Of a DNA stretch of 64,000 bases, positions 3,020-24,879 are shown piece after piece (position 1 is the first letter of the stretch; each line of letters starts with the position of its first letter). The position numbers and the translations under genes are program-made. A model generated the notes under the pieces. That model made no database searches, was not told the DNA's origin, and saw nothing but the letters and a program-made list of their open reading frames with translations. Source of the DNA: an uncultured Candidatus Saccharibacteria bacterium. Its GTDB lineage: Bacteria > Patescibacteriota > Doudnabacteria > UBA920. Location: assembly GCA_964402965.1 (NCBI GenBank), contig CAYODY010000001.1:72002-136001 (forward strand), read 5' to 3'.

Positions 3020-3046
3020 ATTTACGGTCGTCGCAACAACTTTAAA

Positions 3047-3081: not shown

Positions 3082-3083
3082 AT

Positions 3084-4175: not shown

Positions 4176-4212
4176 GGGTTTATTATACTGGAAATCTTGC
4201 TTTAAAAATAGG

Positions 4213-4245
4213 TAAGAAAAACCTCTCCAACTTGTGTAGGAGAGG
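4213..4245 (-). terminator. rho-independent terminator downstream of folA (end of the dcd-tmk-thyA-folA operon)
   Basis: On the minus strand: CCTCTCC-tacacaagtt-GGAGAGG followed by TTTTTCTTACCTATTTTT. Confidence 0.6.
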
Positions 4246-4268
4246 CTTTGATGCAGGACTAACTATAG

Positions 4269-4802: not shown

Positions 4803-4810
4803 AGTACTCC

Positions 4811-5668: not shown

Positions 5669-5677
5669 TGTTTTCTC

Positions 5678-6412: not shown

Positions 6413-6483
6413 AACTTATTTTCCTCCTTTATTAAGTTAAATAACTTTGTAAAGGATAGCCCCTATCCATATTAACTGTCAAA

Positions 6484-7077
6484 CTACTTTTTAAACTTAA
6501 TCCATTCATTATTCTTCAGGAAGTTTTTGTAGTACTGTGATGCTTGTGGTTTCATAGCGCCGTAGTATTTACTTCCTAACTTCCCTTTTCCGTATGGGGT
6601 ATCTGCTTTGGAAGATAGATTGATGAATGTCATTTGCCCTATCGGCATTTTGTAGTAAAGTTTTATTGGTAGCTCTGCAATATTGTGTAGTTCTAAAGTA
6701 ATGCGTAATTTATTTCCTGGGTCTATGTATCCTGCAGTAGCGTGAACTATTAAACCAATTCTGCCTAGACTAGATTTTCCGTCTAAGTGGCCCACAACAT
6801 CATCCCCTAGTCCAATAACTTCATATGTCATTCCGAGTGCGAATTGTCCTGGATGCAAAATGAAGTGAGATTTTTCATCTATCTTCACTTTGTCCATCAT
6901 GTTGTCTATATTTTCTTTAGGGTCAATGCAGATTTGGTCGCGAGTTTTAAATACCATAAAGTCTGCACCAAGATGAACATCGACACTGGCTGGTTGAATA
7001 GCTTTTGGGAATAATGGGTCTACAACTATTCGTCCGGTTTTGAGTGATTTTTTGATGTCTTTGTCTGATAGGATCAT
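6484..7077 (-). CDS. dcd: dCTP deaminase
   Basis: MILSDKDIKKSLKTGRIVVDPLFPKAIQPASVDVHLG is the dCTP deaminase/dUTPase fold. 197 aa. Confidence 0.88.
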   Translation of the reverse strand: MILSDKDIKKSLKTGRIVVDPLFPKAIQPASVDVHLGADFMVFKTRDQICIDPKENIDNMMDKVKIDEKSHFILHPGQFALGMTYEVIGLGDDVVGHLDGKSSLGRIGLIVHATAGYIDPGNKLRITLELHNIAELPIKLYYKMPIGQMTFINLSSKADTPYGKGKLGSKYYGAMKPQASQYYKNFLKNNEWIKFKK

Positions 7078-7189
7078 ATGTTTTTGTGTTAAGATGTCCC
7101 CCTTTTTTAAGGGTTAAATTAGCGTTTAATTGGCTATGAGCAAATTTAATGTTCTAAGCTCACTAAATTGTACCATAGATTTAGGTGTT

Positions 7190-7217
7190 AAAAAACAGCC
7201 CAGAAAGGCTGTTTTTT
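7190..7217 (-). terminator. bidirectional rho-independent terminator between rplA and dcd
   Basis: AAAAAA-CAGCC-cagaaa-GGCTG-TTTTTT. Confidence 0.65.
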
Positions 7218-7228
7218 AGTTCAAACAC

Positions 7229-7912
7229 TTAAGCTTTAAAGCGGATTCCAGGTCCCATTGTGGAGTTTAAAGTAGTGCTGATTACGTAGGATCGTTTTAT
7301 TGCAGCTGGCTTAACAGAATGTAAAGCTTCCATGAATGTTTTAAGATTCTCTTCAAGTTTTGCAGAATCGAAATCGGTTTTACCAATTACTTGGTGCACG
7401 TTTCCAGAATTGTCGTTCTTGAAGCTAACTTTACCACCAGCAATTTCTTTGATAGCAGTTGCGATGTTTTCAGAAACTGTTCCTGTTTTTGGGTTAGGCA
7501 TCATACCTCTTGTTCCCAAAATTTTTGCAATTTGTGCAAGTTTAGGCATCATTGCAGGTTCTGCTACAGCAATATCGAAATCAGTTTTTTCTGTTTCCTT
7601 AATTTGCTTAATTAATTCTTCGCCACCAGCAATTGTCGCTCCAGCAGCTAACGCAGCTGCTTCGTTTGTTTCTGTAACGAATGCAGCAATTTTGCGGGTC
7701 TTCCCTGTTCCGTTAGGCAAAGTTACTGAACCTCTAATTGCTTGGTCAGTTTTCTTTGCATCGATTCCAGTTTTAATGTGAACTTCGATTGAACCAACAA
7801 ACTTTGTTGTTGCAGTTTTCTTTGCTAATTCAATAGCTTCTGCAATTGAGTAGACTTTTTCTTTATCAACTTGTTCCGAGTTAGCCTTGGCGCGTTTAGA
7901 TATGATGGACAT
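7229..7912 (-). CDS. rplA: 50S ribosomal protein L1
   Basis: Conserved L1 sequence, 227 aa. Typical position in the L11-L1 operon. Confidence 0.93.
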   Translation of the reverse strand: MSIISKRAKANSEQVDKEKVYSIAEAIELAKKTATTKFVGSIEVHIKTGIDAKKTDQAIRGSVTLPNGTGKTRKIAAFVTETNEAAALAAGATIAGGEELIKQIKETEKTDFDIAVAEPAMMPKLAQIAKILGTRGMMPNPKTGTVSENIATAIKEIAGGKVSFKNDNSGNVHQVIGKTDFDSAKLEENLKTFMEALHSVKPAAIKRSYVISTTLNSTMGPGIRFKA

Positions 7913-7978
7913 AAAATTTCCTTTCGTGGTAGAACGAGTTTGGTTTTTAAACCTTGCTCTCCCACGTTAATTAATAGA

Positions 7979-8320
7979 TTAAACTTCTTTTCTAGCAAGT
8001 CTCCAGTGATACAAGAATACAGGCGTTGCAATTAGAATCATAGACATTGCCTGAGCGGCATCGCTTTGTTTCTGTGCATTGCTCATATTTTTTGCGTAAT
8101 TGGGGTCAGAACATTCTGGAGATTGTGCAACTACGGTTCCGTCAGGATTTTTTACTTCCTGAGGACAGTAAACATTCTGATACGTTAATTCATCGGCTTT
8201 CGGGAACACCCAAGTTTTGATTCCTAGGTTGATGAGCATTATCCCAGCTATTACTAGAATAACTAAAGATATAAGCGAGACTAAGTATAAATATACTTTT
8301 TTTATCCAAGAGAGGTTCAT
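7979..8320 (-). CDS. small two-TM membrane protein inserted between rplK and rplA
   Basis: 113 aa with two hydrophobic helices flanking a Cys-containing polar loop. Tight spacing: 10 nt after rplK and 66 nt before rplA. Confidence 0.5.
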   Translation of the reverse strand: MNLSWIKKVYLYLVSLISLVILVIAGIMLINLGIKTWVFPKADELTYQNVYCPQEVKNPDGTVVAQSPECSDPNYAKNMSNAQKQSDAAQAMSMILIATPVFLYHWRLARKEV

Positions 8321-8330
8321 ATGAGCTCCT

Positions 8331-8756
8331 TTACTCGGTAACGTCTACTCCCATAGAGCGGGCAGTACCGCGAATTATTTTTTCTGCTTGCTCGATGCTG
8401 TTTGCATTCAAGTCAGGCATTTTCTTCTCTGCAATTTCACGAATTTGTGCTGCAGAAATTTTTCCAACTTTTGTAGTTAGAGGGTTTCCACTTCCCTTTG
8501 CTAAACCAATCGTTTTCATGATTAGGTTAGAAGCTGGTGGAGTCTTAAGTATGAAGTCGAAACTACGATCTTCATAAATAGTCATTTCAACGGGGATAAT
8601 CAGATCTCCCATAGGAGCTGTTTTATCGTTGAATTGTTTGGTAAAGTCCGCGATGTTAATACCATGGGGCCCAAGGGCGGTACCAACAGGTGGAGCTGCA
8701 GTTGCTTTTCCGGCAGGAAGTTGCAACTTTACCATTGACTTAACTTTTTTTGCCAT
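8331..8756 (-). CDS. rplK: 50S ribosomal protein L11
   Basis: [25 protein letters not shown] is the canonical L11 sequence. 141 aa. Confidence 0.95.
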
Positions 8757-8887
8757 TGTCTTGAGTAGTAATCCTTCTTAGGGACGAGACCGCACTCGTA
8801 AGTGCAAGCCGACTACTTATATTAATGATAATCCAATTATGGATTTTACACGGAGCTTTATTTCAAAGCTCCGAAAAAATTCACAAT

Positions 8888-9433
8888 CTAGCTTTTCTTT
8901 ACTTGCAAGAAGTCTAATTCAACTGGAGTTTCGCGGCCAAAGATTGTAACCATTACTTTTACTTTACCTTTAGCTTGATCTATATCTGAAATCTTTCCTT
9001 GATATTCTTTGAATGGACCATCAATGATAGTAACTAACTCGCCTACTTCAAAGTCTACTTTGAACTTTGGTTCTTCAGTGCCCATGCGCTTTTGTAGGAA
9101 ATCCCACTCTTCTTGAGAAACTGGTGTTGGGATAGTTCCGGAACCAACGAATCCTGTTACGTTTGGTGTGTTACGAACAACATACCAAGAGTCATCTGTT
9201 ACAATCATGTTTACTAGAACGTAACCTGGGAAAATCTTTTCTTCAATAGTAGTACGTTTACCGTCACGAATTTTGATCTTCTTTTCTTTTGGTACTACGG
9301 CATCAAAAATTTTATCTTGCATGCCAAGATTTTCAATACGTTGTTTAAGGTTAACGGCAACGCTATCTTCGTACCCGCTGTATGTATGTAGGACGTACCA
9401 GTTTTTTTCGCCGGTGGTTTGTTGCTTAGACAT
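8888..9433 (-). CDS. nusG: transcription termination/antitermination factor NusG
   Basis: NGN domain (WYVLHTYSGYE) and a KOW motif (GELVTIIDGPFKEYQGKI). 181 aa. Confidence 0.9.
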   Translation of the reverse strand: MSKQQTTGEKNWYVLHTYSGYEDSVAVNLKQRIENLGMQDKIFDAVVPKEKKIKIRDGKRTTIEEKIFPGYVLVNMIVTDDSWYVVRNTPNVTGFVGSGTIPTPVSQEEWDFLQKRMGTEEPKFKVDFEVGELVTIIDGPFKEYQGKISDIDQAKGKVKVMVTIFGRETPVELDFLQVKKS

Positions 9434-9459
9434 TTAGAAAAAATTAAAATTCTTTATGA

Positions 9460-9642
9460 TTACTTAATAAGACTTTCAAAACCTTTTAGAAGGCCAAAGT
9501 CAGCTGCACCTAAAATTACTGCCATTGCTACACTAAAAGCAATAACAGTTAAAGTGTAACGAATTGTGTCTTGGCGAGATGGCCAAATTACTTTGCCCAA
9601 TTCTGCCCAAACATCTCTGAAAAATTGAATAATTTTTGACAT
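9460..9642 (-). CDS. secE: preprotein translocase subunit SecE
   Basis: 60-aa single-TM protein. FFRDVWAELGKVIWPSRQDT matches SecE. Sits upstream of nusG as usual. Confidence 0.85.
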   Translation of the reverse strand: MSKIIQFFRDVWAELGKVIWPSRQDTIRYTLTVIAFSVAMAVILGAADFGLLKGFESLIK

Positions 9643-9786
9643 TTTTTTATAATTTTCCGCTTGATTTTAGTAACGAAGCTAGGGTTTTCCTTAGGAAATT
9701 TCCTATTTTGGCCAAAATTTCAAGCTTTTTTAAAACCCGCAACGGGGTTTCCCCTATTATACTATGTTTTTTGTTAGAAAGTCAAA

Positions 9787-9812
9787 TATAAAAGGCCTGT
9801 AAGATTCAGGCC
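9787..9812 (-). terminator. putative terminator downstream of gyrB
   Basis: GGCCTG-aatctta-CAGGCC followed by TTTTATATTT on the minus strand. Confidence 0.45.
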
Positions 9813-9819
9813 CTTTATA

Positions 9820-11973
<2,154 letters not shown>

Positions 11974-13747: not shown

Positions 13748-15139
13748 CTAGTAGTACTTACACTCTTTTTCGTTACACATGTATCCTTTTTTCCCTGCTG
13801 GAGGATTTTGTAATACAGCTTTGATTGTAAATGTTTCAAAGAATTGACCTACTTCGTATTGGTAAATCATCCCATTTGGGTCTAACGGCACATCTGTAAT
13901 GTAACGTGGAATTAATGCACTTGGGAATTGGTCGTTAGTTGGGAATACATTTGTTTGTTGACTGTTAGAGTCTATATTCGCAGTTGAATAAATTAGTAAC
14001 GCACTTTTAATGCTTTCTAAGTCTGTTATTCTTTGTTGATCGTTAACTGCTGCTTCGTCTTTTTTAGCATCGTCTTCAGCATTCTTGCTAGTGTATTTGA
14101 TTAATTGATTTTGAGTTTCGCTGTAATATGCCAAAGTAAAATCTACCCCGTTTGGAGAAACTTCATAGCTATAAACATAGCGCTCTTTGTTGATTGGGTC
14201 GTTGTAATTTGTAGCGACGGTGTTGTATGAGCCAATTAGGTCGCTCATTGTTACGAAGTCTTTGCTGGTTGGAAAAGCTTTTTTGTCAGCTTTATATTTC
14301 AAAAGTGCTGCACCGACTTTTTTAATTGTAGTTTGGCGTTGGCTGTCTCTGTCTAGTTTAGCTTGAGGAGACATATCTAAATTTAAACTTGCAAGGGAGT
14401 CTGCGTCTGGATCTGTAAAATCGTAAAGCTCCATTGCGGCAGGACCAATTGTTGTAAGAGTTGGTTGATGTAATCCAAATCCTTTCACTTTTTCTTTTAG
14501 GGCAATAATTTGTTCTGGAGAATATGGGATATTTGTTTTAATATCATAACCACCTTTTACAAAATCTGAATCGGTATATTCCCCATCTCGGAAAGTACGG
14601 GAAAGCAGTGGGTCTGTTTCGAAAATATGAACTTCGTCGCCATCTGCAACGCCGTCGCTGTCGCTATCTGGATTATTTGGATCTGTTCCAGTATCAAACT
14701 CTTCTTTGTTTGCCAGTCCATCATGGTCTGGGTCGGATTTGTCAGCACAGGTGGTTTTAATGGTACAAGTTTCAGAGCCAAAATACCTTGCTAGCCACTC
14801 TGCAGGGGTTGTGACATCTGGGTCAGTAACTGGAGCAATAGGTGTTTCTACTGTTGGAGTTTCAATCGGTTCTGATTTTTTGTTGAGTAGAAAGAACCAC
14901 ACGCCTGCTCCAATTGCGGCAAGAAGAATCACAACAGCAGGGATCCATACAAATTTGTTTCTAAAAATTTTAAACACGCTACTTTTTGAATCCATGGTTA
15001 TGGAACTTCCGCGAGTCTCTGCACTACTAAAAACAGTTTCTGACTTAGAAGCATTAACTTTGCGCGAAACAGGAGCTTTATTGCCTGTTACTTCTGGCAT
15101 AACGTTGTAGAAAGTAGAAGGTTGTTTTTCGTCAGACAT
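13748..15139 (-). CDS. hypothetical membrane-anchored extracellular protein with thrombospondin-type-3-like Ca-binding repeats
   Basis: 463 aa. Single TM (WIPAVVILLAAIGAGVWFFLL) after a ~55-aa N-terminal segment. DPDHDGLANKEEFDTGTDPNNPDSDSDGVADGDE matches DxDxDG calcium-binding repeats. The C-terminal half shows two related modules. Confidence 0.5.
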   Translation of the reverse strand: MSDEKQPSTFYNVMPEVTGNKAPVSRKVNASKSETVFSSAETRGSSITMDSKSSVFKIFRNKFVWIPAVVILLAAIGAGVWFFLLNKKSEPIETPTVETPIAPVTDPDVTTPAEWLARYFGSETCTIKTTCADKSDPDHDGLANKEEFDTGTDPNNPDSDSDGVADGDEVHIFETDPLLSRTFRDGEYTDSDFVKGGYDIKTNIPYSPEQIIALKEKVKGFGLHQPTLTTIGPAAMELYDFTDPDADSLASLNLDMSPQAKLDRDSQRQTTIKKVGAALLKYKADKKAFPTSKDFVTMSDLIGSYNTVATNYNDPINKERYVYSYEVSPNGVDFTLAYYSETQNQLIKYTSKNAEDDAKKDEAAVNDQQRITDLESIKSALLIYSTANIDSNSQQTNVFPTNDQFPSALIPRYITDVPLDPNGMIYQYEVGQFFETFTIKAVLQNPPAGKKGYMCNEKECKYY

Positions 15140-15155: not shown

Positions 15156-15530
15156 CTAAGCGTTTAAAAATATTTCAAGAGTGATTATGAAAAGTATGAG
15201 TGTTAGTCCAACCCACCAGAATAGTAGGCTTGCTGATTGGAGGATTAACAACCCAGAAATTAAAAGTGCGAGAAGGATTGCTTGTCTTGCAGAAGTCCTA
15301 AGGTGTTCTGTAAACATCCCTGGAGTGAATCTTTTCCTCAAGAGAGTTCCTAGTAGTGTAATTATTCCTATCAAACTTAGTGAAAGGGTGATATAAAAAC
15401 TAAATTGTCCTACAAGTCCTGCTGTATTCGGATCTATAAACCACAATACAGAGCCAAATGCGGCAACAAACAGAATCGTTCCCAATAGAATCGGGATTAA
15501 GTAGGTTCGTGTGGTGTTGTGGATCTGCAA
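15156..15530 (-). CDS. hypothetical small polytopic membrane protein
   Basis: 124 aa, four predicted TM helices, no recognisable motif. Confidence 0.4.
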   Translation of the reverse strand: MQIHNTTRTYLIPILLGTILFVAAFGSVLWFIDPNTAGLVGQFSFYITLSLSLIGIITLLGTLLRKRFTPGMFTEHLRTSARQAILLALLISGLLILQSASLLFWWVGLTLILFIITLEIFLNA

Positions 15531-15641
15531 CTTAGATGAGCTTAATTTAATTAAACAGATCAGGAAAGCTGATCAGGCTGAATTACACTGCTGAATTACA
15601 TTATAGAGTGGTTTAATTATACCACATTCAGCTCGGTTCTC

Positions 15642-16271
15642 CTACTTTTTGAAGAGTTTGCGGATCTCTGAGAATATAACTGCTCTAAGTTCAGGACTAG
15701 TTGCGAATTTATACAAGTATGGGGAAATCGAAAGAAGGATGATTAAGGCAACACCTGGAAGAATATACATATCAACATTAGGTATGACTCTTCCAAGATA
15801 GTATCCTAGTACTGTTAATCCTGTAGACCATAGCAAGCTTCCCACAATGCTATAAGTTAGGAATGTGCTGTATTTCATATTCCCTACCCCCGCGAGAGTT
15901 GGTGTGAAAGTTCTAACAATCGGCACGAATCTCGCTAGAATAATTGTCTTCGGACCATGGAGTTTAAAAAATGCATTTGCTTTTTCTAAATGAGATTTGT
16001 GAAAGAAAAAAGATTCTTCTTTTTTGAAAATCTTTGGTCCAAGTTTTTTGCCAATATAGTAACCTGTGTTATCTCCTGCAAAAACGACAATAAAGAGACC
16101 AATAATTATTACCCATATATTTAAAACACCTTGGGAAGCTAGAATTCCAGCAGTAAATAATAGGCTATCGCCTGGTAAGAAAAATCCAAAAAGAAGACCA
16201 GTCTCTGCGAAGACAATCCCGAACAATCCAAGATATCCAACAGTTTTTAAAAGGGTTACTAAATCAAACAT
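15642..16271 (-). CDS. DedA/SNARE-associated (VTT domain) membrane protein
   Basis: GLFGIVFAETGLLFGFFLPGDSLLFTAG is the DedA family signature. 209 aa. Confidence 0.8.
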   Translation of the reverse strand: MFDLVTLLKTVGYLGLFGIVFAETGLLFGFFLPGDSLLFTAGILASQGVLNIWVIIIGLFIVVFAGDNTGYYIGKKLGPKIFKKEESFFFHKSHLEKANAFFKLHGPKTIILARFVPIVRTFTPTLAGVGNMKYSTFLTYSIVGSLLWSTGLTVLGYYLGRVIPNVDMYILPGVALIILLSISPYLYKFATSPELRAVIFSEIRKLFKK

Positions 16272-16303: not shown

Positions 16304-19282
16304 TTATAGCAGATCCGGATGGCTACAATTGTGTCTTTTGCTTTTTTTGTGAAGTTCTGCGAATTTGTCGTACTTCACTGCATCCCTAATTTCTTCAATA
16401 GTTTTGAGAATTTTTTCTTTAAGCAAAGTTAGTTCATCTGGCGCAGCTTTTGGTACTGTGACTGTTTCATTTGGATAAACATACCAATACTGCAAATTCT
16501 CTACTTCCATATTTAAATATTCCTCACAGGCCCATTGGTAAATACGCAACTGATCCACCCCTTCACTATCAGTTTTAGTTGGAACTTTTTCAGAAGTTTT
16601 ATAATCAATAATTTGCAGGCTTGTAGTTTCTGTACCATCCTCTTGTGTAATAACAATACCAGAATCTGCTCTGTCAATCTTACCGTTAAAGGTGTACTGG
16701 TTTTTATCGCCTAGTTTTAGTGAGAAAGCTTTTTCGATTAATACAGGACTAACTGGTTTGCCCGATTTTTTCTTTTCCAGAGTTGTAGAATAGAAAGTTT
16801 TAAGAATTTGTAGACCTCGTTGTCTGTATGTTTCTTTTTGTTCTGGGCTTTCATACCAGTCGTCAATCCATTCCTTTTCGAATAATTCAAAAAGTAATTC
16901 TTCTGGAGGAAGTTCTACTTCAGTTTCTTTGGTAAACAAATCTTGCTGAGGCATGGAAAAACTGTGTTGGTAAGCTTCCATGTATTTCTGTAAGACATTG
17001 TGAATTGTTGAACCAAAACTTAAGTGATGATTTCCTGGTAATGGAAGCTTTAGATAGTAGCGGTACTTGTATTCAAGTGGGCATTGTACAAACTGAGAAA
17101 TTTGACTGAAAGAAAAATTTTCTGGTAGCTGTTTGTAAATAACTTTTTTAGACTTTGATTTGTTCGGAGTAAAGACTACTTTCCCTGTAGCTTTGTGTAC
17201 TGTATCGCTTGGGATTAAGTTAGTTTCGTTCAAAAATATTGATGGTTTTTTGTATTTTGCACCACCGTAATCTGTTGCCCAACTTAGATACAAATGAGTC
17301 TTGGCGCGAGTTACTGCAACGTAAAATAGACGGCGCTCCTCTTGTAAATGGAAATCTCCTTCCGGGAGAATGTCTTTTACTAATGCTTCTGGTAGTTCAA
17401 TTGCATCGCGCTTTGCACGAGTTGGGAATCGTTGGTCAACCATATTAATCAGAAAAGCGAATTTGAACTCCAATCCTTTTGAGCTGTGAATTGTCATGAC
17501 CTTTAAACTTTCAGGTCCTGAGTTTGGATCAAACTTAATAGTTCCATCTTCCCCTGCTTTGAACTCTAAGTTAAGTTCATTCAGAAAACCTCGCATAGTT
17601 CGGTCTTCTGCAGTTTGTACATATGCTTCAATTTTCTTATAGAACTGCTCAAGCAGTTCCCTATTTTGAACATTCTCAAGTGTTTCAACAGCGAGTATAG
17701 CATCTATAGAAAGATCTTCTACCAATTCAACAAAAAGTTCTACTGCAGATTTTTCTGTAGAGAGCTGGGTGTGTTTTGTTAAAAGTTCTAATAGAGTTCT
17801 AATTTTTAGTTTTGAATCCTCTGAAAGAACTGAAAGGGCTTCTTCGCTGTGCAGTGCTTCATATAGCGATATCGTTTTTCTGTTTGTAAACTGAGTTAAG
17901 TGCGCTACATCTAGTGCGTCTAATTGGAACTTTGGGAAATTCAAAACTCTGTAAAGCGCGCTGGATTCATGAAAATTTTTGAGTAATTTTAAATAATTTA
18001 TAATGTCGGAAATTAAAGGTTTCTTGTACAAACCTTTGTTGGCTACAAAACTATATGGAACTTGTTTGGCCTCAAGTATAGGTATAATTTCAGTTGCGGC
18101 GGAATTGGATCTAGTTAAAATACAAAAATCATTCCACGAAGTTTCTGGGAATCTCTCTTTTAATTCTATTGCCTTTGTAACTACTAGGTTTAATTCTTCA
18201 CTTAAGTCTTTTCCTTCAAGAACTTGAATTTCTGTTTCGGATTTTTCGTGTCCTTTTAGGCGCTTGTCTATTTTCAGTTTTGTTTCTAAACGATTCGGGT
18301 TATTTCCCTGAATGAAATTGTATGCTAAATCCAAAATTTTCTGAGTACTACGGTAGTTGTCTATTAAAGTTAAGCTTTGAATTGTTGGGTAATCTTCTTT
18401 TATTTTCAAAATATTAGATACTGATGCACCTCTAAACTTGTAAATAGATTGATCGTCATCGCCTACAACCACTAAGTTTTGTTCTGTGCCTGCTAACAAA
18501 CGGATGAGTTCGTATTGGGCGACGTTGGTATCTTGAAATTCATCTACCATTAAAAACCTAAATTGCTTTTGGTAGTATTTGAGTAAATTTGGACGTTTCT
18601 TGAAAAGTTGAATTGTGTAGTGAATTAGATCTCCGAAATCTAAGTACCCGTTGTCTAGCAGTAGTTGCTGATATGTTTTGTATGCATTGGCAAGTTCTTC
18701 AAGACGTTTTTGCTCTACAACCAAATCTTCATCTGGACCAATAGGAAGTTGATTCGCACCGTTTTCTGCTTTGAGTTTTTCAGCGTAAGCAATGTATTCG
18801 TCCGGAGTTATGAGTTCGTCTTTGCACTTAGAAAAATGATCCAAAAGTGCGTCTATGAATTTGTTTGGACTACCAAGTGGTTTGTAGTAGTCTAGTTTGA
18901 ATTCGTTGAAGTTTTTGTAAATAAAAATCCACTGACGAGTTGAGTCCAGAAGTTCGAAGTCGTTAGATAAGCCAATGTCTATACCATGCTGTTTAATAAT
19001 TCTTTCGCAAAAACTATGGAAAGTTGAAATCCAAAAATCATGGACTCCTAATGGTACAAGCATGTCTACTCTTTCTTCCATTTCGCTTGCAGCTTTGTCT
19101 GTAAAAGTAAGAGCTAGAATTTGGTCTGGTTTAGCCAGTTTCTGGTCTATTAGGTAAGCAATTCGACGAGTAATTACGGTAGTCTTCCCTGTTCCAGCAC
19201 CAGCAACAATTAAAAGAGGCCCATTTGTGTGGGTCACAGCTTTTAATTGTTCAGTGTTTAAATTTTCTAAAAGATTTGGCAT
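16304..19282 (-). CDS. UvrD/PcrA-family SF1 helicase fused to a C-terminal PD-(D/E)xK (RecB/AddA/Cas4-like) nuclease domain
   Basis: N-terminal helicase motif I (AGAGTGKTTVITRRIAYLI), DEFQDTN and later SF1 motifs. The C-terminal ~250 aa carry the IIDYKTSEK PD-(D/E)xK signature. 992 aa. The start ATG directly abuts the TAG stop of the PIN gene. Confidence 0.8.
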   Translation of the reverse strand: MPNLLENLNTEQLKAVTHTNGPLLIVAGAGTGKTTVITRRIAYLIDQKLAKPDQILALTFTDKAASEMEERVDMLVPLGVHDFWISTFHSFCERIIKQHGIDIGLSNDFELLDSTRQWIFIYKNFNEFKLDYYKPLGSPNKFIDALLDHFSKCKDELITPDEYIAYAEKLKAENGANQLPIGPDEDLVVEQKRLEELANAYKTYQQLLLDNGYLDFGDLIHYTIQLFKKRPNLLKYYQKQFRFLMVDEFQDTNVAQYELIRLLAGTEQNLVVVGDDDQSIYKFRGASVSNILKIKEDYPTIQSLTLIDNYRSTQKILDLAYNFIQGNNPNRLETKLKIDKRLKGHEKSETEIQVLEGKDLSEELNLVVTKAIELKERFPETSWNDFCILTRSNSAATEIIPILEAKQVPYSFVANKGLYKKPLISDIINYLKLLKNFHESSALYRVLNFPKFQLDALDVAHLTQFTNRKTISLYEALHSEEALSVLSEDSKLKIRTLLELLTKHTQLSTEKSAVELFVELVEDLSIDAILAVETLENVQNRELLEQFYKKIEAYVQTAEDRTMRGFLNELNLEFKAGEDGTIKFDPNSGPESLKVMTIHSSKGLEFKFAFLINMVDQRFPTRAKRDAIELPEALVKDILPEGDFHLQEERRLFYVAVTRAKTHLYLSWATDYGGAKYKKPSIFLNETNLIPSDTVHKATGKVVFTPNKSKSKKVIYKQLPENFSFSQISQFVQCPLEYKYRYYLKLPLPGNHHLSFGSTIHNVLQKYMEAYQHSFSMPQQDLFTKETEVELPPEELLFELFEKEWIDDWYESPEQKETYRQRGLQILKTFYSTTLEKKKSGKPVSPVLIEKAFSLKLGDKNQYTFNGKIDRADSGIVITQEDGTETTSLQIIDYKTSEKVPTKTDSEGVDQLRIYQWACEEYLNMEVENLQYWYVYPNETVTVPKAAPDELTLLKEKILKTIEEIRDAVKYDKFAELHKKSKRHNCSHPDLL

Positions 19283-19729
19283 CTATTCCTTTCCTGAGAA
19301 GAAACCTGCCCATTGTTTCCAAAGATCATTACCTTCATCTTTGTAACGAACCCAAAATTGAGACGGGTTCACAATTTGGACATTTTCGTATTTCTCGATA
19401 GAAAGTAAATCGTTGTCGCGCGTTACTAAATAGTCAGCACCTGCTTCAACCGCACTCTCTAAAATTTTATTGTCTTCTGGGTCGCGCACAATATTAATTT
19501 GACGTCGATTCACAACATGGTTTATTTGCGAAAGTAAATCATTGATTTCGTTTTCGTATTCTGGGTTTTCTACTAAACGACGCATAATTAACTTATTCTC
19601 TTGAATAGTTTGATGGTTTGCGTACGCTTCAATTTCCCCTGTCCTCACAGCGTCTATAATTTGTTTTTCGTAAGAGTAGTCGTCTTTAATTCCGTCTATT
19701 ATTACATTTGTATCTAAAACTATTTTCAT
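19283..19729 (-). CDS. PIN-domain protein (putative ribonuclease)
   Basis: KIVLDTNVII, DPEDNKIL and LVTRDNDL give the four-acidic-residue PIN pattern. 148 aa. No antitoxin-like partner. The stop abuts the helicase-nuclease start (TAGATG). Confidence 0.7.
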   Translation of the reverse strand: MKIVLDTNVIIDGIKDDYSYEKQIIDAVRTGEIEAYANHQTIQENKLIMRRLVENPEYENEINDLLSQINHVVNRRQINIVRDPEDNKILESAVEAGADYLVTRDNDLLSIEKYENVQIVNPSQFWVRYKDEGNDLWKQWAGFFSGKE

Positions 19730-19767
19730 TCTAATTTTTTCTATTGAAAGGTGCTCTTAGGTTTTGA

Positions 19768-20346
19768 TTAAGATCTGGCGTTTTTCCGTGCGGCGCGGGC
19801 TTGTGGTGTTCGACTGCTTGGGCGGGCGCCTGTACGACCACCTTTAATGGCCATCAGGAAACGACGAGGATCTTCATCTAAGTCTATGAAGTTATCTGTG
19901 AGCTCTTTAATCTTACTCGAAGTAGATTTTCCAAACGCAACGGTTTCAGTAAGTTGGCCTGTCATTTGTAGGTATTCTAGTAGAGGCGCGAAGTCGCCAT
20001 CGCCACTTGCTAAGACAACTACGTCGAGCTTGTTCATTTGCTTAATGATATCCATAGCAATGCCGACATCCCAATCGCCTTTTTGAGTTCCACCAGCAAA
20101 TGTTTGTAAATCTTTTGCTTTAACTTCGAAACCTGCTTTTTCAAGTGCGTCAAAAAAAGTTTGTTCTTCTGGCATATCTGCTTTTACAACATATGCAATG
20201 GCGCGGATTAAACGACGATTACCAAGAGCTTCGTGCAATACTTCGTTGAAGTTTACTCGAGAATTGTAAATGTTTCGCGCTGAGTAATATAGGTTTTGAA
20301 CATCAACAAATATTCCTACTCGCTGATCCGGGTTTCTTATAGACAT
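19768..20346 (-). CDS. NYN/LabA-like domain protein (PIN-like RNase fold) with an Arg-rich C-terminal tail
   Basis: GIFVDVQNLYYS and VVLASGDGDFAPLLEYLQ are the NYN (PF01936) hallmarks. The C-terminus is TGARPSSRTPQARAARKNARS. 192 aa. Confidence 0.7.
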   Translation of the reverse strand: MSIRNPDQRVGIFVDVQNLYYSARNIYNSRVNFNEVLHEALGNRRLIRAIAYVVKADMPEEQTFFDALEKAGFEVKAKDLQTFAGGTQKGDWDVGIAMDIIKQMNKLDVVVLASGDGDFAPLLEYLQMTGQLTETVAFGKSTSSKIKELTDNFIDLDEDPRRFLMAIKGGRTGARPSSRTPQARAARKNARS

Positions 20347-20373
20347 AAAAAATAGTTAAAAAATTAGATAAGG

Positions 20374-21429
20374 TTATTCAATTAAATTTTTAGATTCTTC
20401 CGCAGCAAATTCAGTAACCTCTACTTGCTCCATTTGTAAGGTAGCAGCATTTTTAATGTTACTTTGTAGTTTAGTAAAATCGTTAGCAACAGTACCCATT
20501 GTATTGGCAGAATTCTTAATATGATTAGCAAGAATTCCTAAGTTTCGGCCGAATTTATCGGATTCTTGTTGGATTCCAGAAACCATATGCAAAAGCTTTT
20601 CAGCAACTTCGTTAACTTGCTGACCACGTAAGGCTATTAAAATAATTTGTAAATGATGGTATAAAGTGTTTGGGCTCACCATGTAGACTTTTTTGTTGCG
20701 GGCGTATTCAACTGTTGCCATGTCTTCTAAAGCTTCATGGAAAACTCCCTCGCTTGGAATGTACATTAGTGCAAAATCAAAAGTTCCTTCTTGAGTAAGG
20801 ATGTATTTTTTGTGAATTTCATCAATTCGCTTGCGAATATCACGTAAAAAAGCTTTTTTCAAATTTTCTGCAGAATCTTCCTCTTTCGCTTCTTTGTACA
20901 AACGAAAATTTTCCATGGAGAATTTGCTATCTATAGAAAGAATTTTGTCTCCTACGAAAACAGCCATGTCTACAATTTCACCGTTGCTAAATTTATACTG
21001 GGCTTTGTATGAATTTTTATTTAGCACTTGGGAAAGCATGTTCTCTAGCATTTCTTCACCAAAGTTTCCGCGTGCTTTTGGCGAGGCCAGAACTTCGGAC
21101 AAACGACGAATGTCTGGACCAATTTGCGACATTTCTCCAAGTCTTCCTTGTAGCGCACCAATTACTTTTGCGGCATTATCAAGGCGCTCGTTGATGTCTT
21201 TATTAGTCGCAGAAATAGACTTTTCCATAGCATCTTTTGTGGCTTCTGTACCGGTTTTGATATCGCGCATCCATTCCATCATTACTTTCATATTAGTGTC
21301 GTCAACTGGTTTCTCGGCCGACTTTTTGAGCGTCGAAAGCATATACAAAAGAACGCCGAATCCGGCCACAAGTAAAGCTATGATGATATATAAAAATGTT
21401 GTCATATGGTTAATTATAGCAGAGGGCAC
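20374..21429 (-). CDS. rmuC: DNA recombination protein RmuC
   Basis: N-terminal TM, a long coiled coil, and a C-terminal RmuC domain (GNFGEEMLENMLSQVL, SIDSKFSMENF). 351 aa. Confidence 0.7.
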   Translation of the reverse strand: MPSAIINHMTTFLYIIIALLVAGFGVLLYMLSTLKKSAEKPVDDTNMKVMMEWMRDIKTGTEATKDAMEKSISATNKDINERLDNAAKVIGALQGRLGEMSQIGPDIRRLSEVLASPKARGNFGEEMLENMLSQVLNKNSYKAQYKFSNGEIVDMAVFVGDKILSIDSKFSMENFRLYKEAKEEDSAENLKKAFLRDIRKRIDEIHKKYILTQEGTFDFALMYIPSEGVFHEALEDMATVEYARNKKVYMVSPNTLYHHLQIILIALRGQQVNEVAEKLLHMVSGIQQESDKFGRNLGILANHIKNSANTMGTVANDFTKLQSNIKNAATLQMEQVEVTEFAAEESKNLIE

Positions 21430-21469
21430 ATAAACCAGCTACTGAATCTATTTAATGCCTCTTAAACCC

Positions 21470-21498
21470 AAAACACGCCCCTCTAGAAGGCGTGTTTT
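21470..21498. terminator. bidirectional terminator-like hairpin flanking the R-M module (left side)
   Basis: AAAACACGCC-cctctagaa-GGCGTGTTTT, a perfect 10-bp stem. Its core ctctagaagg is shared with the hairpin at 23643-23672. Confidence 0.65.
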
Positions 21499-21592
21499 CG
21501 GAACTTTGTTAAGTTATATCAGCTTTAACAGCTGTATTAATTATATCAGGCTATTAGGCACGCGCAAGGGCTTGGGCTGTGGATATTCTCGT

Positions 21593-22612
21593 TTATTTTC
21601 CCAATTTTTTTAATGTGCCAAGAGTCAATAAACTAGCAGGATATATTGTGCTAATTTTTTGCATGTATTCTTTGGAATTATAGATTTCATCACTAACAAA
21701 TGTTATAACGCCGTAATTGGCAATTGATTTTGCCTTTTCTTCGGTTAAATCTAAACCAAGTGTTATTTGAATCATAACGTCAATTTTACTCATCTGAACA
21801 GTTTTTATAAATTGTTTATACCTCTCTCTTAGAGTTCTTTTGGCACCAATTCCGTATACTTTATTCTTTATTTTAAAGAAAAAGTCAAATTCTGTTGAAC
21901 TGTCTGCTTTGTCATGAGTTTTTGATATGTCATTTGCTTTTATCCCCAAACTAATAAGGATATTATATATTCTGTCTTCATAATTTGAACCTGCATCGGA
22001 TAGAATCGATTGATTGATACTTTCTGAAAACATTAACATAAACATCTGATTTGGTTCCAATCCTTTAGTTTTTAGGAATCTATAATCATGAAATAGAGAA
22101 TTAACATATTCTTTAGTTGATTGAGAAATGAAACTTGTATCTTTATCTTCAAGCTTTGAAAAAAACAATAGAGAGAGTAAAGCGCCATTAACTCTAGTGT
22201 AATATGGTTTGCTTTTTGAAATCGTGTCGTATTCGACTGAAAGTTGATTTACATTTTGAAGTGAGGATAAGTTAGATATATCTCCAACTTTGGCTTCAGC
22301 GAGCAGTAAAGGTTTAATTTGAATTAATTTAAGTGAGAAAACAAAAGTGATTAAATCAGTAGTATTTTTAACTTGATACATCATGGCAGTAAGCCCTACT
22401 TTTTTAGTTTCTGAAAGCTGGTCTATTAAATTAATAAATATTGCTTTAATTTGATTGAGTGATAGTTTGGAGTTAGAAAAGTATGCTTCCAAGAATTTAT
22501 TGATTTCATTATCCGATAATTTAATAGCACCATTAAGCTCCTTTAAGAAAAAATATAGATTAAAGTTAGCATCAAGCTTATTCCTTTTAATTTTGACCTT
22601 ATTTATTTTCAT
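21593..22612 (-). CDS. candidate type II restriction endonuclease (unassigned family) cognate to the adjacent m5C methyltransferase
   Basis: 339-aa ORF with no recognisable housekeeping motif. Its start overlaps the methyltransferase stop by 14 nt (translational coupling). The call rests on genomic context only. Confidence 0.4.
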   Translation of the reverse strand: MKINKVKIKRNKLDANFNLYFFLKELNGAIKLSDNEINKFLEAYFSNSKLSLNQIKAIFINLIDQLSETKKVGLTAMMYQVKNTTDLITFVFSLKLIQIKPLLLAEAKVGDISNLSSLQNVNQLSVEYDTISKSKPYYTRVNGALLSLLFFSKLEDKDTSFISQSTKEYVNSLFHDYRFLKTKGLEPNQMFMLMFSESINQSILSDAGSNYEDRIYNILISLGIKANDISKTHDKADSSTEFDFFFKIKNKVYGIGAKRTLRERYKQFIKTVQMSKIDVMIQITLGLDLTEEKAKSIANYGVITFVSDEIYNSKEYMQKISTIYPASLLTLGTLKKLGK

Positions 22613-23603
22613 GTTTTTGCAAGGTATTAATAATCTGTTTTGCTAATGTTTTGATTACAGGCACTGCAACGCTGTTACCGAATTGTTTATACATTTGATT
22701 ATCGCTATTTGGCAAAACAAAAGAATCTGGAAACCCTTGGAGTCTTGCAGCCTCTCTAGGTGTTAATTTACGAGGGTTTTTATTTTTTTGTTCAATTAAA
22801 ATTTCAGATCCGTCTTTGTAATATCTTGCTGATATTGTACTGGTATACTTGGATTTTCTGTTAAACAAAGAATAGCCAAAACCATTACCTTTTTCTCTAT
22901 GTTCTTTTTTTCTTCTTTGGTGTCCTGCCCATAATTTATCAGAAATTGTATACTTAGGATCAATTTTCTTTTCAAGAATATCTCCTAATTTTGTTGCAGG
23001 TTTTGGTTCATCTGGAAAAGTAAATTCTATATTCCCTTTAAAAGCAACAATGTAAATTCTAACTCGATTTTGAGGCAAACCAAAATCTTTAGCATTATAT
23101 AATCTATGATAAACTTTATAACCCATATCCTCTAGGGTAGAAATAATCACTTTTAAGGTATTCCCTTTGTCGTGGCTTGCTAAATTCCTAACATTTTCTA
23201 AAAATACAACCTTTGGTTTATGGTGTTTAACTATTCTCGCTATATCAAAAAATAAGGTTCCGCGAGTATCTTCAAAGCCTTTTTTTAGACCTGCTTGAGA
23301 AAATGGCTGACATGGAAAGCCTGCTAATAACATATCGAAATTTGGAATTTCTTCTGGAGATATTTTTGTGATATCTCCGTATGGCAATTCGCCGAAGTTT
23401 GCAAGGTATGTCTTTTTCGCTGCCTCGTCCCACTCTGAAGTAAATACGCATTCACCGCCAGCATTTTCAAAACCCATGCGTATCCCTCCGATTCCTGCAA
23501 ACAAATCGATAAAAGTAAATTTAGCAGATTTAATTTTGTTAATAGGTTTAGTAAATAAGTCCCTAATTATAACTTTGCGTTTTAGAACGGTAGTATTTTG
23601 CAT
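22599..23603 (-). CDS. DNA (cytosine-5)-methyltransferase, M.HhaI-like family
   Basis: All C5-MTase motifs are present: I FIDLFAGIGGIRMGF, IV GFPCQPFSQAG, VI VVFLENVRNL, VIII QNRVRIYIVAF, X YKQFGNSVAVPV. The conserved blocks closely parallel M.HhaI; the target-recognition domain differs. 334 aa. Confidence 0.9.
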   Translation of the reverse strand: MQNTTVLKRKVIIRDLFTKPINKIKSAKFTFIDLFAGIGGIRMGFENAGGECVFTSEWDEAAKKTYLANFGELPYGDITKISPEEIPNFDMLLAGFPCQPFSQAGLKKGFEDTRGTLFFDIARIVKHHKPKVVFLENVRNLASHDKGNTLKVIISTLEDMGYKVYHRLYNAKDFGLPQNRVRIYIVAFKGNIEFTFPDEPKPATKLGDILEKKIDPKYTISDKLWAGHQRRKKEHREKGNGFGYSLFNRKSKYTSTISARYYKDGSEILIEQKNKNPRKLTPREAARLQGFPDSFVLPNSDNQMYKQFGNSVAVPVIKTLAKQIINTLQKHENK

Positions 23604-23642
23604 GTATAAATTATAGCATTAGAGCGATAAAGTTTATAGAAA

Positions 23643-23672
23643 AAAACAACCCTCTCTAGAAGGATTGTTTTT
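23643..23672. terminator. bidirectional terminator-like hairpin flanking the R-M module (right side, next to tRNA-Asp)
   Basis: AAAAACAAcCCT-ctctaga-AGGaTTGTTTTT, a 9-bp stem with one mismatch. It shares the ctctagaagg core with the hairpin at 21470-21498. Confidence 0.55.
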
Positions 23673-23681: not shown

Positions 23682-23758
23682 TGGCGGACTGAACGGGACT
23701 CGAACCCGCGACCTCTCGCGTGACAGGCGAGCGCTCTAACCAACTGAGCTACCAGTCC
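23682..23758 (-). tRNA. tRNA-Asp (GUC), CCA encoded
   Basis: The reverse complement folds as a cloverleaf: GGACTGG acceptor, anticodon loop CTGTCAC (GTC), T-loop TTCGAGT, 3' end GCCA. Confidence 0.85.
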
Positions 23759-23828
23759 ATGTTATTTATTGGCGCGAATGCGCTAAAATTTTCTTACACT
23801 TTTATATTTATTTCTATATTGATCGGGT

Positions 23829-23904
23829 TGGTACCGACGACAGGGATTGAACCTGTGACCTAAGGCTTATGAGTCCTTCGCTCTACCAACTGAGCTACGT
23901 CGGC
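23829..23904 (-). tRNA. tRNA-Met (CAU) elongator (tRNA-Ile2 with lysidine not excluded), CCA encoded
   Basis: The reverse complement GCCGACGTAGCTCAGTTGGTAGAGCGAAGGACTCATAAGCCTTAGGTCACAGGTTCAATCCCTGTCGTCGGTACCA folds as a cloverleaf, apart from an A31:G39 mismatch at the base of the anticodon stem. The anticodon is CAT. The C11:G24 pair indicates an elongator type. Confidence 0.8.
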
Positions 23905-24042
23905 TTATTACCCTACTGCGCTACAATTAGACTTGCAATAATTACTCTTGCGCTGTTGCGAATTTTATTGATGCGGCTTATGCTTCTGCATAATTTTTTT
24001 GGTTGCGGGGCCGGGATTCGAACCCGGAACCTCAAGGTTATG

Positions 24043-24694
24043 CATACCACTATAGCTTTCGCTACTCTATCGAAATCGATTCGAAATAGATTTGATGGTC
24101 TGGACTTTCTCTTCATCCATCTATATAATGGATGCCTACCATTAAGTCTCTACACCTTCCTGAAAATCTTCAGGCTTGGCTCGGGATTGCCATCTAACAG
24201 GGTTCCCCGAATTTGATAGGATTCACATCTAAATTACTTTAGATGCAGCCCATAGTGAGATAAGTTCAAAGTTTTCTCGGTAATCAGCTGACTTTGGTTT
24301 ACGTTGACGTTTGTCAGTTTCAACTAAGGTAAGCGTGCTACCAAAACTTATAAATATTTCTACTGGAAAAACGTAAAAAATTCGTTTTTCAGGGATGTAT
24401 ACAATAGCGAAGTCAAAATCTTGTTTATTGTACAAACTTCTTATCATAAATCTGCGATTAGTCTTAGTGCGTCTAACATCAACACAATAGTTTTGATCAG
24501 AAGTGTTAAACCAAGCAGATTTTACTTGAAGTTTTACAAGCTTTCCATTTATATCAACTATTAGATCGTAGGAATGTCTGTCGCCCACAGGCTTCGAAAC
24601 TCCCCATCCAAACTCTAATAGTTTTAGAATAGTGGCTTGTTCAGCTACATCGCCTTTTAGTTTAGTATCCATATAAAGAACTTTCTCGAGATTG
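24043..24694 (-). mobile_element. group I self-splicing intron (~652 nt) carrying a homing-endonuclease-like ORF
   Basis: Reading the minus strand downstream of the ORF shows the group I core elements. P is AAATTCGGGGAACC, Q is GCAATCCCGAGCCAAGCC, R is GTGTAGAGACTTAATGG and S is AGAAAGTCCAGACC. A P6 hairpin (CCTGAAGATTTTCAGG) and a P8 hairpin (CATCCATtatatagATGGATG) are present. The 5' exon ends in U and the intron ends in G, consistent with CU|...G|CAUAA splicing. Confidence 0.75.
24229..24672 (-). CDS. intron-encoded PD-(D/E)xK-fold endonuclease (putative homing endonuclease, cf. I-Ssp6803I of the cyanobacterial tRNA-fMet intron)
   Basis: 147 aa. GDVAEQATILKLLEFGWGV...DRHSYDLIVDINGKLVKLQVKS fits a helix-E / D / (Q)xK restriction-fold core. 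It lies entirely inside the intron, 22 nt after the 5' splice site. Confidence 0.6.
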   Translation of the reverse strand: MDTKLKGDVAEQATILKLLEFGWGVSKPVGDRHSYDLIVDINGKLVKLQVKSAWFNTSDQNYCVDVRRTKTNRRFMIRSLYNKQDFDFAIVYIPEKRIFYVFPVEIFISFGSTLTLVETDKRQRKPKSADYRENFELISLWAASKVI

Positions 24695-24879
24695 AGCCTT
24701 GCGAGCTGCCAATTGCTCTACCCCGCGTCAATATATATACCAAAAGGTACTTGGAGATTATATCACTATTACTAGGATTTGGCAAGGTTTTAGGTAAAAT
24801 TTATCATAAATTTAGTCAAGTAAAACAAAACCGCCCCTTGCGGAACGGTTTCGTCGATTGCTTCGAAGCAATTATCGAA

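Follow-up and report, generated by a model that had tools for sequence, protein, structure and literature searches.

A conserved RmuC-NYN-PIN-helicase gene string of Doudnabacteria-like Patescibacteria is probably genome-maintenance backbone rather than a mobile or variable defence module

We investigated a string of four nuclease and helicase genes in a 64,000-nt stretch of contig CAYODY010000001.1 (assembly GCA_964402965.1; the whole stretch is referred to as the window), which had originally been predicted to form a nucleic-acid-targeting defence or repair module. All four genes lie on the minus strand and, in the order in which they would be transcribed, encode an RmuC protein, a NYN protein of 192 aa (19768-20346), a PIN-domain protein of 148 aa (19283-19729) and a 992-aa helicase-nuclease, hereafter HEL (16304-19282). 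The mechanical RmuC open reading frame (ORF) spans 20374-21429 and gives 351 aa from a GTG codon. An ATG at 21405 is used as the RmuC start in gene calls on five independent Logan contigs that carry an identical helicase and the same neighbours, and it is likely the true start in the window as well, giving a protein of 343 aa (20374-21405). The intergenic gaps measure 27 nt (RmuC-NYN), 38 nt (NYN-PIN) and 0 nt (PIN-HEL), the helicase ATG following directly on the PIN stop codon TAG, and in all of this the ORF coordinates and the sequence agree with what had been predicted. Pfam likewise bore out the domain identities proposed for RmuC, NYN, PIN and the UvrD helicase with its PD-(D/E)xK nuclease.

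The DNA basis of the comparison comprised these 64 kb and pieces of about 20 kb from the genomes of relatives. Specifically, we used 80 loci from species-representative genomes, Pfam-annotated contigs spanning the range of helicase identity and 35 metagenome loci retrieved with a PIN profile, onto which the window genes were mapped with phmmer, hidden Markov models and BLASTP (loci and proteins of relatives carry L and P numbers below). The order RmuC-NYN-PIN-HEL recurs in relatives whose helicase is 52-78% identical to that of the window (L009, L010, L022, L086-L091 and L125), and two short contigs (L008 and L093) hold parts of it. Among the 12 lineages with at least 3 kb of upstream sequence, 11 keep the order RmuC-NYN-(PIN)-HEL, the exception being L006; in L007 PIN is missing and NYN stands directly before HEL. 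Where flanks were available, they were collinear as well: on one side lie ATP-synthase subunits, the CCA-adding enzyme, tRNA-Met and tRNA-Asp, and a variable interval that leads into the string, while on the other side DedA, accompanied in some relatives by a cupin, is followed by a 124-aa ORF, a pilin-like protein, a tRNA-binding protein, PheS, GyrB, SecE/NusG and L11/L1. In several relatives the starts and stops of NYN, PIN and HEL abut or overlap by 1 nt.

Measured against the window, the products of the string are conserved at 79-95% identity (NYN), 51-92% (PIN) and 52-78% (HEL). The housekeeping proteins of the same loci give 69-89% (AtpD), 77-85% (GyrB) and 59-87% (PheS), and the genes downstream of the string 58-71% (DedA) and 40-62% (the pilin-like protein). 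RmuC, NYN, PIN and HEL evolve at core-gene rates, unlike defence genes, and the GC content of the block (0.345-0.394) matches the window background. The conservation of the neighbourhood had been proposed as a check, and it showed the string travelling with the ATP-synthase/PheS/GyrB backbone in relatives, with restriction-modification (R-M) genes absent from six of them. The original prediction had itself named a conserved syntenic housekeeping block as the observation that would speak against it, and such a block is what the relatives hold.

One contig (L089/L125; GCA_034680565.1, JAXOUH010053930.1, 181869-205265) carries two inverted, divergent copies of RmuC-NYN-PIN-HEL-DedA. Copy a runs on into the usual housekeeping synteny and copy b reaches the contig end; relative to the window, the helicase of copy b is 57% identical versus 72% for copy a, but PIN is 84% identical versus 67%. 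The double block could be either a real segmental duplication or an assembly chimera. A separate observation concerns the junction of PIN and HEL, which holds an opposite-strand ORF in L087 (7630-7950, minus strand), L089 (7672-7923, minus strand), L090 and L022, and which holds none in the window. The ORF encodes 83-106 aa with a common ANAFVVG...QFYRI-like motif, has its own GGAGG site and gave no Pfam match; in L010 the spacer contains a 126-aa PD-(D/E)xK-like ORF instead.

HEL matches the Pfam families UvrD-helicase (6e-86), UvrD_C (3e-49) and PDDEXK_1 (2e-26), and divides into a superfamily 1A (SF1A) motor of PcrA/UvrD type (residues ~1-690), a flexible linker (692-711) and a C-terminal RecB-family PD-(D/E)xK nuclease (~720-985). 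By sequence, the motor is closest to PcrA (1pjr; 349 bits, 34% identity over residues 3-688), after which rank UvrD, UvrD1 and Rep, and then AdnB (132 bits), AddA (112), RecB (48) and GajB (46). An AlphaFold2 model made with 60 homologues (pLDDT 81) contains the motor, the linker, which is disordered, and an alpha/beta nuclease domain. When the model was searched with Foldseek, PcrA and UvrD came out top for the motor; at full length it aligned to AddA with query TM-scores of 0.50-0.52, and the best query TM-scores were obtained with AdnB chains (0.55-0.58). Walker A, DEFQD, D870, D893-Y-K895 and Q911..Y915 are invariant in homologues down to 34% identity. Across the 60 homologues, the only invariant cysteines of the nuclease domain are C734, in a QCP motif, and C986, near the C-terminus, so that a four-cysteine Fe-S cluster of the Cas4/AddB type is unlikely in HEL. 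The protein scores below the NCBIfam equivalog cut-off for PcrA (491 versus 911.2 bits) and misses those for UvrD and Rep too, as it does those of TIGR02785 addA_Gpos (185.7 bits, cut-off 707.65), TIGR00609 recB (157.7, cut-off 696) and PRK13909 RecB-like (121, cut-off 759).

With PcrA, UvrD, Rep and similar SF1A helicases (e.g. Geobacillus PcrA, 1pjr/3pjr), HEL shares the motor (residues ~3-690) and the invariant helicase motifs, but it carries in addition a C-terminal RecB-family nuclease of ~270 residues on its flexible linker. With AddA, AdnB and RecB it shares the single-chain succession of an SF1A motor and a PD-(D/E)xK nuclease with D...D-x-K and QxxxY, whereas its motor is nearer to PcrA, its length is 992 aa compared with 1095-1232, a four-cysteine cluster is unlikely and a partner gene is absent from the surrounding 10 kb. 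Neither a UvrD-like nor a PDDEXK_1 gene occurs a second time within ~10 kb of HEL in the window, and none was seen among the called or mapped genes of the syntenic relatives. HEL thus appears, from sequence and model, to be a PcrA-type motor in an AddA/AdnB/RecB-type architecture, a protein of known kind that falls outside the characterised families. Its homologues come from Patescibacteria and, where named, mostly from Candidatus Doudnabacteria; the 119 listed below the cluster of identical sequences are 55-79% identical over 96-100% of the query, and every one of them has PDDEXK_1.

The PIN protein belongs to PIN_3 (Pfam, 3.2e-20; TIGR00305, 1.2e-15). A sequence search of the PDB gave nothing useful for it, and the nearest folds to its AlphaFold2 model (pLDDT 85.6) are those of VapC, with TM-scores of ~0.57. 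Residues D6, E44, D83/E85/D86 and D105 are invariant, and a Trp-rich C-terminal tail is conserved. As had been predicted, no antitoxin ORF stands beside the gene: upstream is the 192-aa NYN gene, downstream the helicase, and the 38 nt between NYN and PIN hold no ORF and leave no room for one encoding an antitoxin. Compared with VapC and other PIN_3 toxins, the protein is alike in family, fold and conserved acidic residues; it differs in that it has no antitoxin gene, is fixed in position, vertically inherited and slowly evolving, possesses the Trp-rich tail and is found in fusions in other lineages. Within the syntenic relatives its divergence tracks that of PheS. Among relatives of the PIN protein, the best 120 (67-95% identity) all stand alone, and nearly all measure 146-156 aa. 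When 1.84 billion representatives were searched with a profile, 9187 PIN relatives emerged, real fusions among them. Repeatedly, PIN is fused to, or has directly behind it, a transmembrane (TM)/coiled-coil/SLT-like peptidoglycan hydrolase (P0383, P0391, P0406, P0428, P0432 and P0449; L096, 5995-7776; L149, 1585-3303), the fusion proteins measuring 553-576 aa. In other real or apparent fusions, PIN is joined to an HhH-GPD base-excision glycosylase (P0448 and L148) and to a PRTase domain (P0417). Read-through artefacts were considered as a source of the fusions, two of which, however, translate as single ORFs. A PIN-helicase fusion of the Rosetta-stone kind was looked for in the 120 listed PIN relatives and in the best 150 of the 9187 representative matches, and none was seen.

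NYN matches its Pfam family at 1.4e-32 and, over its full length, PDB entry 2qip (VPA0982) at 2e-28, which places it in the LabA/COG1432 type; this family has no established function (PMC5499597). The motifs VDVQN, GDWDVG and SGDGDF are invariant, so that the protein resembles 2qip both in the full-length match and in the conserved Asp motifs. It differs from the family at large in that its subfamily is unusually conserved, as tightly as AtpD and GyrB across the syntenic relatives; when 5.8 billion database proteins were searched, none of its 120 best relatives fell below 78% identity. The Arg-rich tail noticed at first is present in the window as an Arg/Ser-rich extension, though it is variable among homologues.

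RmuC matches its Pfam family at 3.1e-50 and begins with a hydrophobic segment read from the sequence, MTTFLYIIIALLVAGFGVLLYML, which is a putative TM helix; a sequence search of the PDB was of no use for this protein. Two sequence types occupy the same syntenic position, one 58-85% and the other 31-33% identical to the window protein. The second type (L022, 7465-8535; L088, 5937-7022; L009, 2-1111) has identities similar to those of the RmuC proteins of distant Patescibacteria, which suggests replacement of RmuC in situ by a paralogue or xenologue.

Immediately upstream of RmuC we read an extended -10-like box, cTGcTATAATt (21410-21422, minus strand), that ends 7-8 nt before the ATG. The box recurs as TTTGnTATAAT upstream of RmuC in six relatives, ending 5-8 nt before the ATG, and it is the probable promoter of RmuC, from which a leaderless or near-leaderless mRNA would start. 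In the alignment of the RmuC upstream regions, only this box and a hairpin stood out, and no LexA-box-like palindrome was identified. Downstream of the string, at a distance of 32 nt from the helicase, lies a gene for a DedA/VTT-domain membrane protein (15642-16271, minus strand; VTT_dom 2.7e-20 in Pfam, DedA 5e-44 in NCBIfam), which also follows HEL in L022, L086, L087, L089, L090 and L125. After it, a consensus scan placed the first terminator-like hairpin downstream of the string (15558-15574, minus strand); between 15575 and 21465 on this strand, the same scan found only one other terminator-like site, a weak one within the helicase ORF. DedA is probably the last gene of an RmuC-to-DedA transcription unit. 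Further downstream, a 124-aa ORF without a family match (15156-15530, minus strand) and a 463-aa protein with weak matches to bacterial TSP3 repeats and T2SS-G pilin-like domains (13748-15139, minus strand) are kept in all syntenic relatives; at 35-66% identity they evolve faster than their neighbours.

The tight packing of the four genes had been taken as a sign that they form a module. However, all 57 genes listed in the window lie on the minus strand at a coding density of 90%, and the 56 same-strand gaps have a median of 31 nt, with 57% of them at or below 38 nt and 16% at or below 0. Further runs of four to six tight gaps occur elsewhere in the window. Since short gaps are the norm for this genome, tight packing is uninformative.

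The immediate neighbours had been described as a type II R-M module and a tRNA cluster, together a defence-island context. The tRNA genes are there: ARAGORN and Rfam find tRNA-Asp(GTC) and an elongator-type tRNA-Met(CAT) at 23682-23904 (minus strand), and the same pair also precedes RmuC in L010 and L022. The R-M cassette (21593-23603, minus strand) is secure in its methyltransferase and less so in its nuclease. The C5 cytosine methyltransferase (22599-23603) is certain (DNA_methylase 4e-113; PADLOC MTase_II 7e-134), and its gene shares 14 nt with the ORF of a putative restriction endonuclease of 339 aa (21593-22612), for which PADLOC gave no match and Pfam only a weak one to EcoRII-C (E 0.003, below cut-off).

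Several features of this cassette bear on how it came to lie beside the four genes. R-M genes are absent between the tRNAs and RmuC in all six relatives that cover the interval (L010, L022, L086, L087, L088 and L090). The GC content falls to 0.296 at 22-23 kb compared with ~0.36 around it. Moreover, the cassette is flanked by a 29-nt hairpin in two copies, one between the endonuclease and RmuC (21470-21498, minus strand; a 10-bp stem, loop TTCTAGAGG and a T-rich tail) and one directly after tRNA-Asp and upstream of the methyltransferase (23643-23671, minus strand), forming a direct repeat whose copies are 83% identical and separated by 2173 nt. After either copy comes the same AATTATAGCA box, a TGcTATAAT -10 element on the coding strand, so that identical 10-nt -10-like boxes stand before RmuC (21412-21421) and before the methyltransferase (23609-23618). 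In L086, L087, L089a and L022, RmuC is likewise preceded by this hairpin, its loop there being TTCTAGAG. Absence from the six relatives, lower GC and duplication of hairpin and box together indicate that the R-M pair is an inserted cassette; on the simplest reading, the two genes were inserted between tRNA-Asp and RmuC with duplication of RmuC's native terminator/promoter segment. The R-M genes thus adjoin the string because the cassette was inserted there in this lineage only. Both the methyltransferase and RmuC would start 6-8 nt after their own -10 boxes, and both mRNAs may be leaderless. An 86-nt stretch containing the 21470-21498 hairpin folds with a z-score of -5.3 and the hairpin-containing interval has no Rfam match; ~50 nt upstream of the conserved TTCTAGAG-loop hairpin there is a second GATATAAT box, which is kept in L086 and L089a. 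From this region (~21460-21545, minus strand), which separates the tRNA cluster from RmuC, a short non-coding RNA could be transcribed.

Other relatives carry different cargo here. The neighbourhood of L086 contains a LAGLIDADG ORF and ORFs of 213, 54 and 386 aa without an assigned family, and L087 has a 644-aa ORF, also without one, between NYN and PIN; the inserted ORFs of these two loci gave no Pfam or PADLOC matches. In L006 (Doudnabacteria SJ812; 352-9885), the 10 kb upstream of HEL hold other genes. Three of them, directly before HEL, encode an 1109-aa HKD/PLD+SNF2 protein that is DrmD/C3a139-like, a type IIG restriction enzyme-methyltransferase of 1186 aa and, at full length, a PDC-S06 protein of 879 aa (755 bits), so that in this other species the same chromosomal site carries different defence cargo. 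R-M genes, other defence genes and homing-endonuclease introns have repeatedly been inserted between the tRNAs and RmuC, and the four genes are the conserved frame of this interval, not its cargo.

The tRNA cluster contains a third gene that the standard ARAGORN scan missed. With introns allowed, ARAGORN, supported by Rfam, finds an initiator-like tRNA-Met(CAT) at 24000-24727 (minus strand) whose anticodon loop is interrupted by a group I intron of 652 nt (Rfam Intron_gpI, 70.4 bits versus a gathering score of 50) and which has a C1.A72 mismatch. An ORF within the intron (24229-24672, minus strand) encodes a PD-(D/E)xK homing endonuclease (PDDEXK_5, 8e-47) that matches PDB entry 2ost at 184 bits (1.3e-53). 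We take 2ost to be I-Ssp6803I. This Patescibacteria locus presumably repeats an arrangement of Synechocystis, in which the tRNA-fMet intron carries I-Ssp6803I; the likeness lies in a group I intron placed in the anticodon loop of an initiator tRNA and carrying a PD-(D/E)xK homing endonuclease. In the same interval, L022 has a homologue of the endonuclease, L010 an uninterrupted third tRNA-Met and L086 its LAGLIDADG ORF.

We then compared the string with known defence systems. PADLOC, which had been suggested for the region, returned no system model that fits: HEL gave strong generic matches to GajB (364 bits) and RTasHel, NYN a partial match (4e-13), and PIN and RmuC were at noise level. The GajB match arises because GajB is itself UvrD-like, and GajB structures match HEL by sequence only at the Walker A region (~46 bits). 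GajA was found by PADLOC in none of ten neighbouring proteins, in which Pfam found no OLD/TOPRIM domain, and Gabija was rejected on both counts. Shield offers a second parallel. Its ShdA protein is an RmuC-domain nuclease of ~524 aa, found only in Pseudomonas, in 6.8% of genomes, where it lies in defence islands or mobile elements with ShdB-E partners, and most ShdA homologues have a hydrophobic N-terminal segment before the RmuC domain (PMC10270631). The window protein resembles both E. coli RmuC (YigN) and ShdA in joining an RmuC domain to a hydrophobic N-terminus. However, it has 343 aa, occupies a fixed housekeeping position across its lineage in the candidate phyla radiation (CPR) and is followed by NYN, PIN and HEL, so that, with partners judged by Pfam content, the architecture is common to both while distribution and partners do not fit Shield. 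A phage or mobile-element origin of the block was also set aside, since the closest relatives on viral contigs are generic UvrD-like genes at 25-39% identity and the GC of the block is unremarkable. The four-gene combination was not found in the literature, nor was anything specific on CPR repair helicases; together with the PADLOC result, this is in keeping with the original view that the combination is not a described system.

Taken together, the block is intact, conserved, syntenic and under strong constraint, its catalytic motifs are intact, and the R-M pair beside it is inserted. Our preferred reading, to which we assign a probability of roughly 0.7, is that the string is vertically inherited chromosomal backbone serving genome maintenance in Doudnabacteria-like Patescibacteria, and is not a mobile or variable defence module. 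The defence-island reading does not stand against the housekeeping synteny on both sides, the core-gene rates and the lineage-specific insertion of R-M. Of the predicted 'defence or repair' function, the defence half is unsupported and housekeeping in repair or recombination is favoured, while the site itself does take up defence cargo.

On this reading, RmuC through DedA would be transcribed from the extended -10 box upstream of the RmuC ATG to the hairpin at 15574-15558, both being consensus matches. HEL would be the lineage's PcrA/UvrD-type 3'-5' SF1A motor, tethered by its linker to a RecB-family nuclease as a single-chain, AddA/AdnB-like enzyme; it may unwind and cut DNA ends or stalled intermediates, the nuclease cutting the displaced or the tracked strand, and may act in recombinational repair, AddAB/RecBCD being possibly absent from these genomes. 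RmuC would be a membrane-anchored PD-(D/E)xK nuclease associated with recombination. PIN is predicted to be a small Mg-dependent nuclease, plausibly of the DNA-damage response, that may assist or regulate DNA processing, and NYN another such nuclease that may act in RNA processing and merely share the transcription unit. Gene neighbourhoods elsewhere lean the same way. In L019, GyrA-RmuC stands apart from M16 peptidase-HEL-RuvB; in L149 (33-3303; GCA_025450675.1), RmuC, LexA on the opposite strand and the PIN-hydrolase fusion adjoin, with RecR and DnaB a few kb away, and the divergence of PIN from lexA hints at SOS control. The links to LexA, RuvB, HhH-GPD and GyrA thus lean towards a role in the DNA-damage response and recombination.

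Several observations weigh against this assignment. HEL falls short of the PcrA equivalog cut-off, and no AddB/AdnA/RecC/RecD-like partner is present within ~10 kb in the window or among the called and mapped genes of the syntenic relatives. PIN_3 proteins are usually toxin-antitoxin toxins, and gene neighbourhoods tie bacterial NYN proteins to the processing of tRNA and rRNA (PMC5499597). The peptidoglycan hydrolase, the most frequent fusion partner of PIN, does not suggest DNA repair; such a fusion would join a cytoplasmic PIN to a cell-wall hydrolase outside the cytoplasm, which is puzzling and calls for caution. Opposite-strand ORFs lie inside the string in L087, L089b, L090 and L022 and other inserted ORFs in L086, L087 and L010, which shows that the string is not an obligate operon. 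Finally, since the whole region is collinear, adjacency alone is no evidence of functional coupling.

The last point leads to the explanation that survives best beside genome maintenance, namely that the four genes are functionally unrelated and held together by a low rate of rearrangement, with NYN and PIN in RNA processing or decay, RmuC and HEL acting separately on DNA, and the spacing a product of compaction. A region of ~30 kb is collinear, and the four adjacencies within it are kept no better than pilin-PheS or PheS-GyrB; the median gap of 31 nt fits compaction, and genes have been inserted inside the string in L086, L087, L010 and L006. PIN is absent in L007, and both NYN and PIN are absent within 10 kb of HEL in the more distant Patescibacteria L014, L016, L019, L020 and L021. 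The neighbourhood association of the NYN family (PMC5499597) and the fusion of PIN to a cell-wall hydrolase in other lineages agree with such independence. However, some of the genes recur together in differing surroundings: RmuC is encoded on the strand of HEL and within ~6 kb upstream of it in L014, L016, L019 and L021, and closer in L020; in L094 and L096, a single gene, for a coiled-coil/SLT-like peptidoglycan hydrolase, separates a PIN relative (33-37% identity) from the helicase-nuclease gene downstream; and RmuC and PIN meet in L149. The start/stop abutment or 1-nt overlap of NYN, PIN and HEL in several relatives, and the occurrence of PIN fused to or beside DNA-repair genes (HhH-GPD, LexA), also speak for a connection, and we consider mere neighbourliness possible but doubtful.

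The same recurrences would allow a bolder proposal, in which RmuC, PIN and HEL, with NYN in Doudnabacteria, make up an undescribed LexA-linked end-processing or recombination machine of Patescibacteria. Its motor-nuclease would work without an AddB/RecC-type partner, and PIN, through its Trp-rich tail, would be a second nuclease or a regulator. What permits this proposal is that the three genes recur together in differing contexts, that PIN and HEL abut or overlap, and that PIN is fused to HhH-GPD and meets RmuC and LexA at one locus. We think such a machine unlikely; were it true, it would represent a housekeeping use of a 'toxin' fold.

Less probable still is a chromosomally fixed, vertically inherited anti-phage or anti-plasmid system, in which HEL would degrade invading DNA and PIN, NYN and RmuC would be extra effectors. 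In its favour, catalytic residues are intact in all four proteins, each of them a nuclease or helicase, Shield has co-opted RmuC domains (PMC10270631) and Gabija UvrD-like helicases, and a second, divergent copy of the whole block exists on one contig. The locus also repeatedly draws defence cargo, as with R-M in the window and type IIG R-M, HKD-SNF2 and PDC-S06 in L006. Yet the block is fixed within housekeeping synteny and not variably present; its proteins evolve at core-gene rates, NYN being conserved like AtpD and GyrB, and its GC is that of the genome. Nor was there a system-level PADLOC match or a GajA, the block was not found on viral contigs, and the helicase has orthologues across Patescibacteria, beside RuvB in L019 with GyrA-RmuC upstream. 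We therefore regard fixed defence as very unlikely. Finally, a role for PIN as toxin in an unconventional toxin-antitoxin or abortive-infection pair, with NYN or the helicase neutralising it, is suggested by the annotation of PIN_3/TIGR00305 proteins as toxins, the VapC-like fold and the conserved acidic residues, but is highly improbable for a single-copy, position-fixed gene conserved at 51-92%, unlike sporadic and fast-evolving VapBC loci, which has no small DNA-binding antitoxin gene beside it and a 38-nt gap too short for one, which is retained where inserted genes part it from its neighbours, and whose neighbour NYN is retained in L007 where PIN itself is absent.

Genome maintenance thus remains the reading we prefer, and what it adds is modest: a conserved CPR neighbourhood of new members of known families, for which we found no prior description in the literature. 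The locus also carries a lesson in method, in that in compact CPR genomes tight spacing, a string of nucleases and helicases and an R-M neighbour can mimic a defence island though the genes are core backbone, a resemblance that checks of synteny and evolutionary rate resolve quickly. The tRNA-to-RmuC interval, by contrast with its frame, is a convenient place to seek CPR defence cargo. For the organisms themselves, the core-gene-level constraint on NYN and on a PIN protein without an antitoxin implies that both probably have important functions. HEL, a fusion of a PcrA-like helicase with a RecB-type nuclease that is conserved across Patescibacteria with no partner subunit detected nearby, is a candidate DNA-end processor of these reduced genomes.

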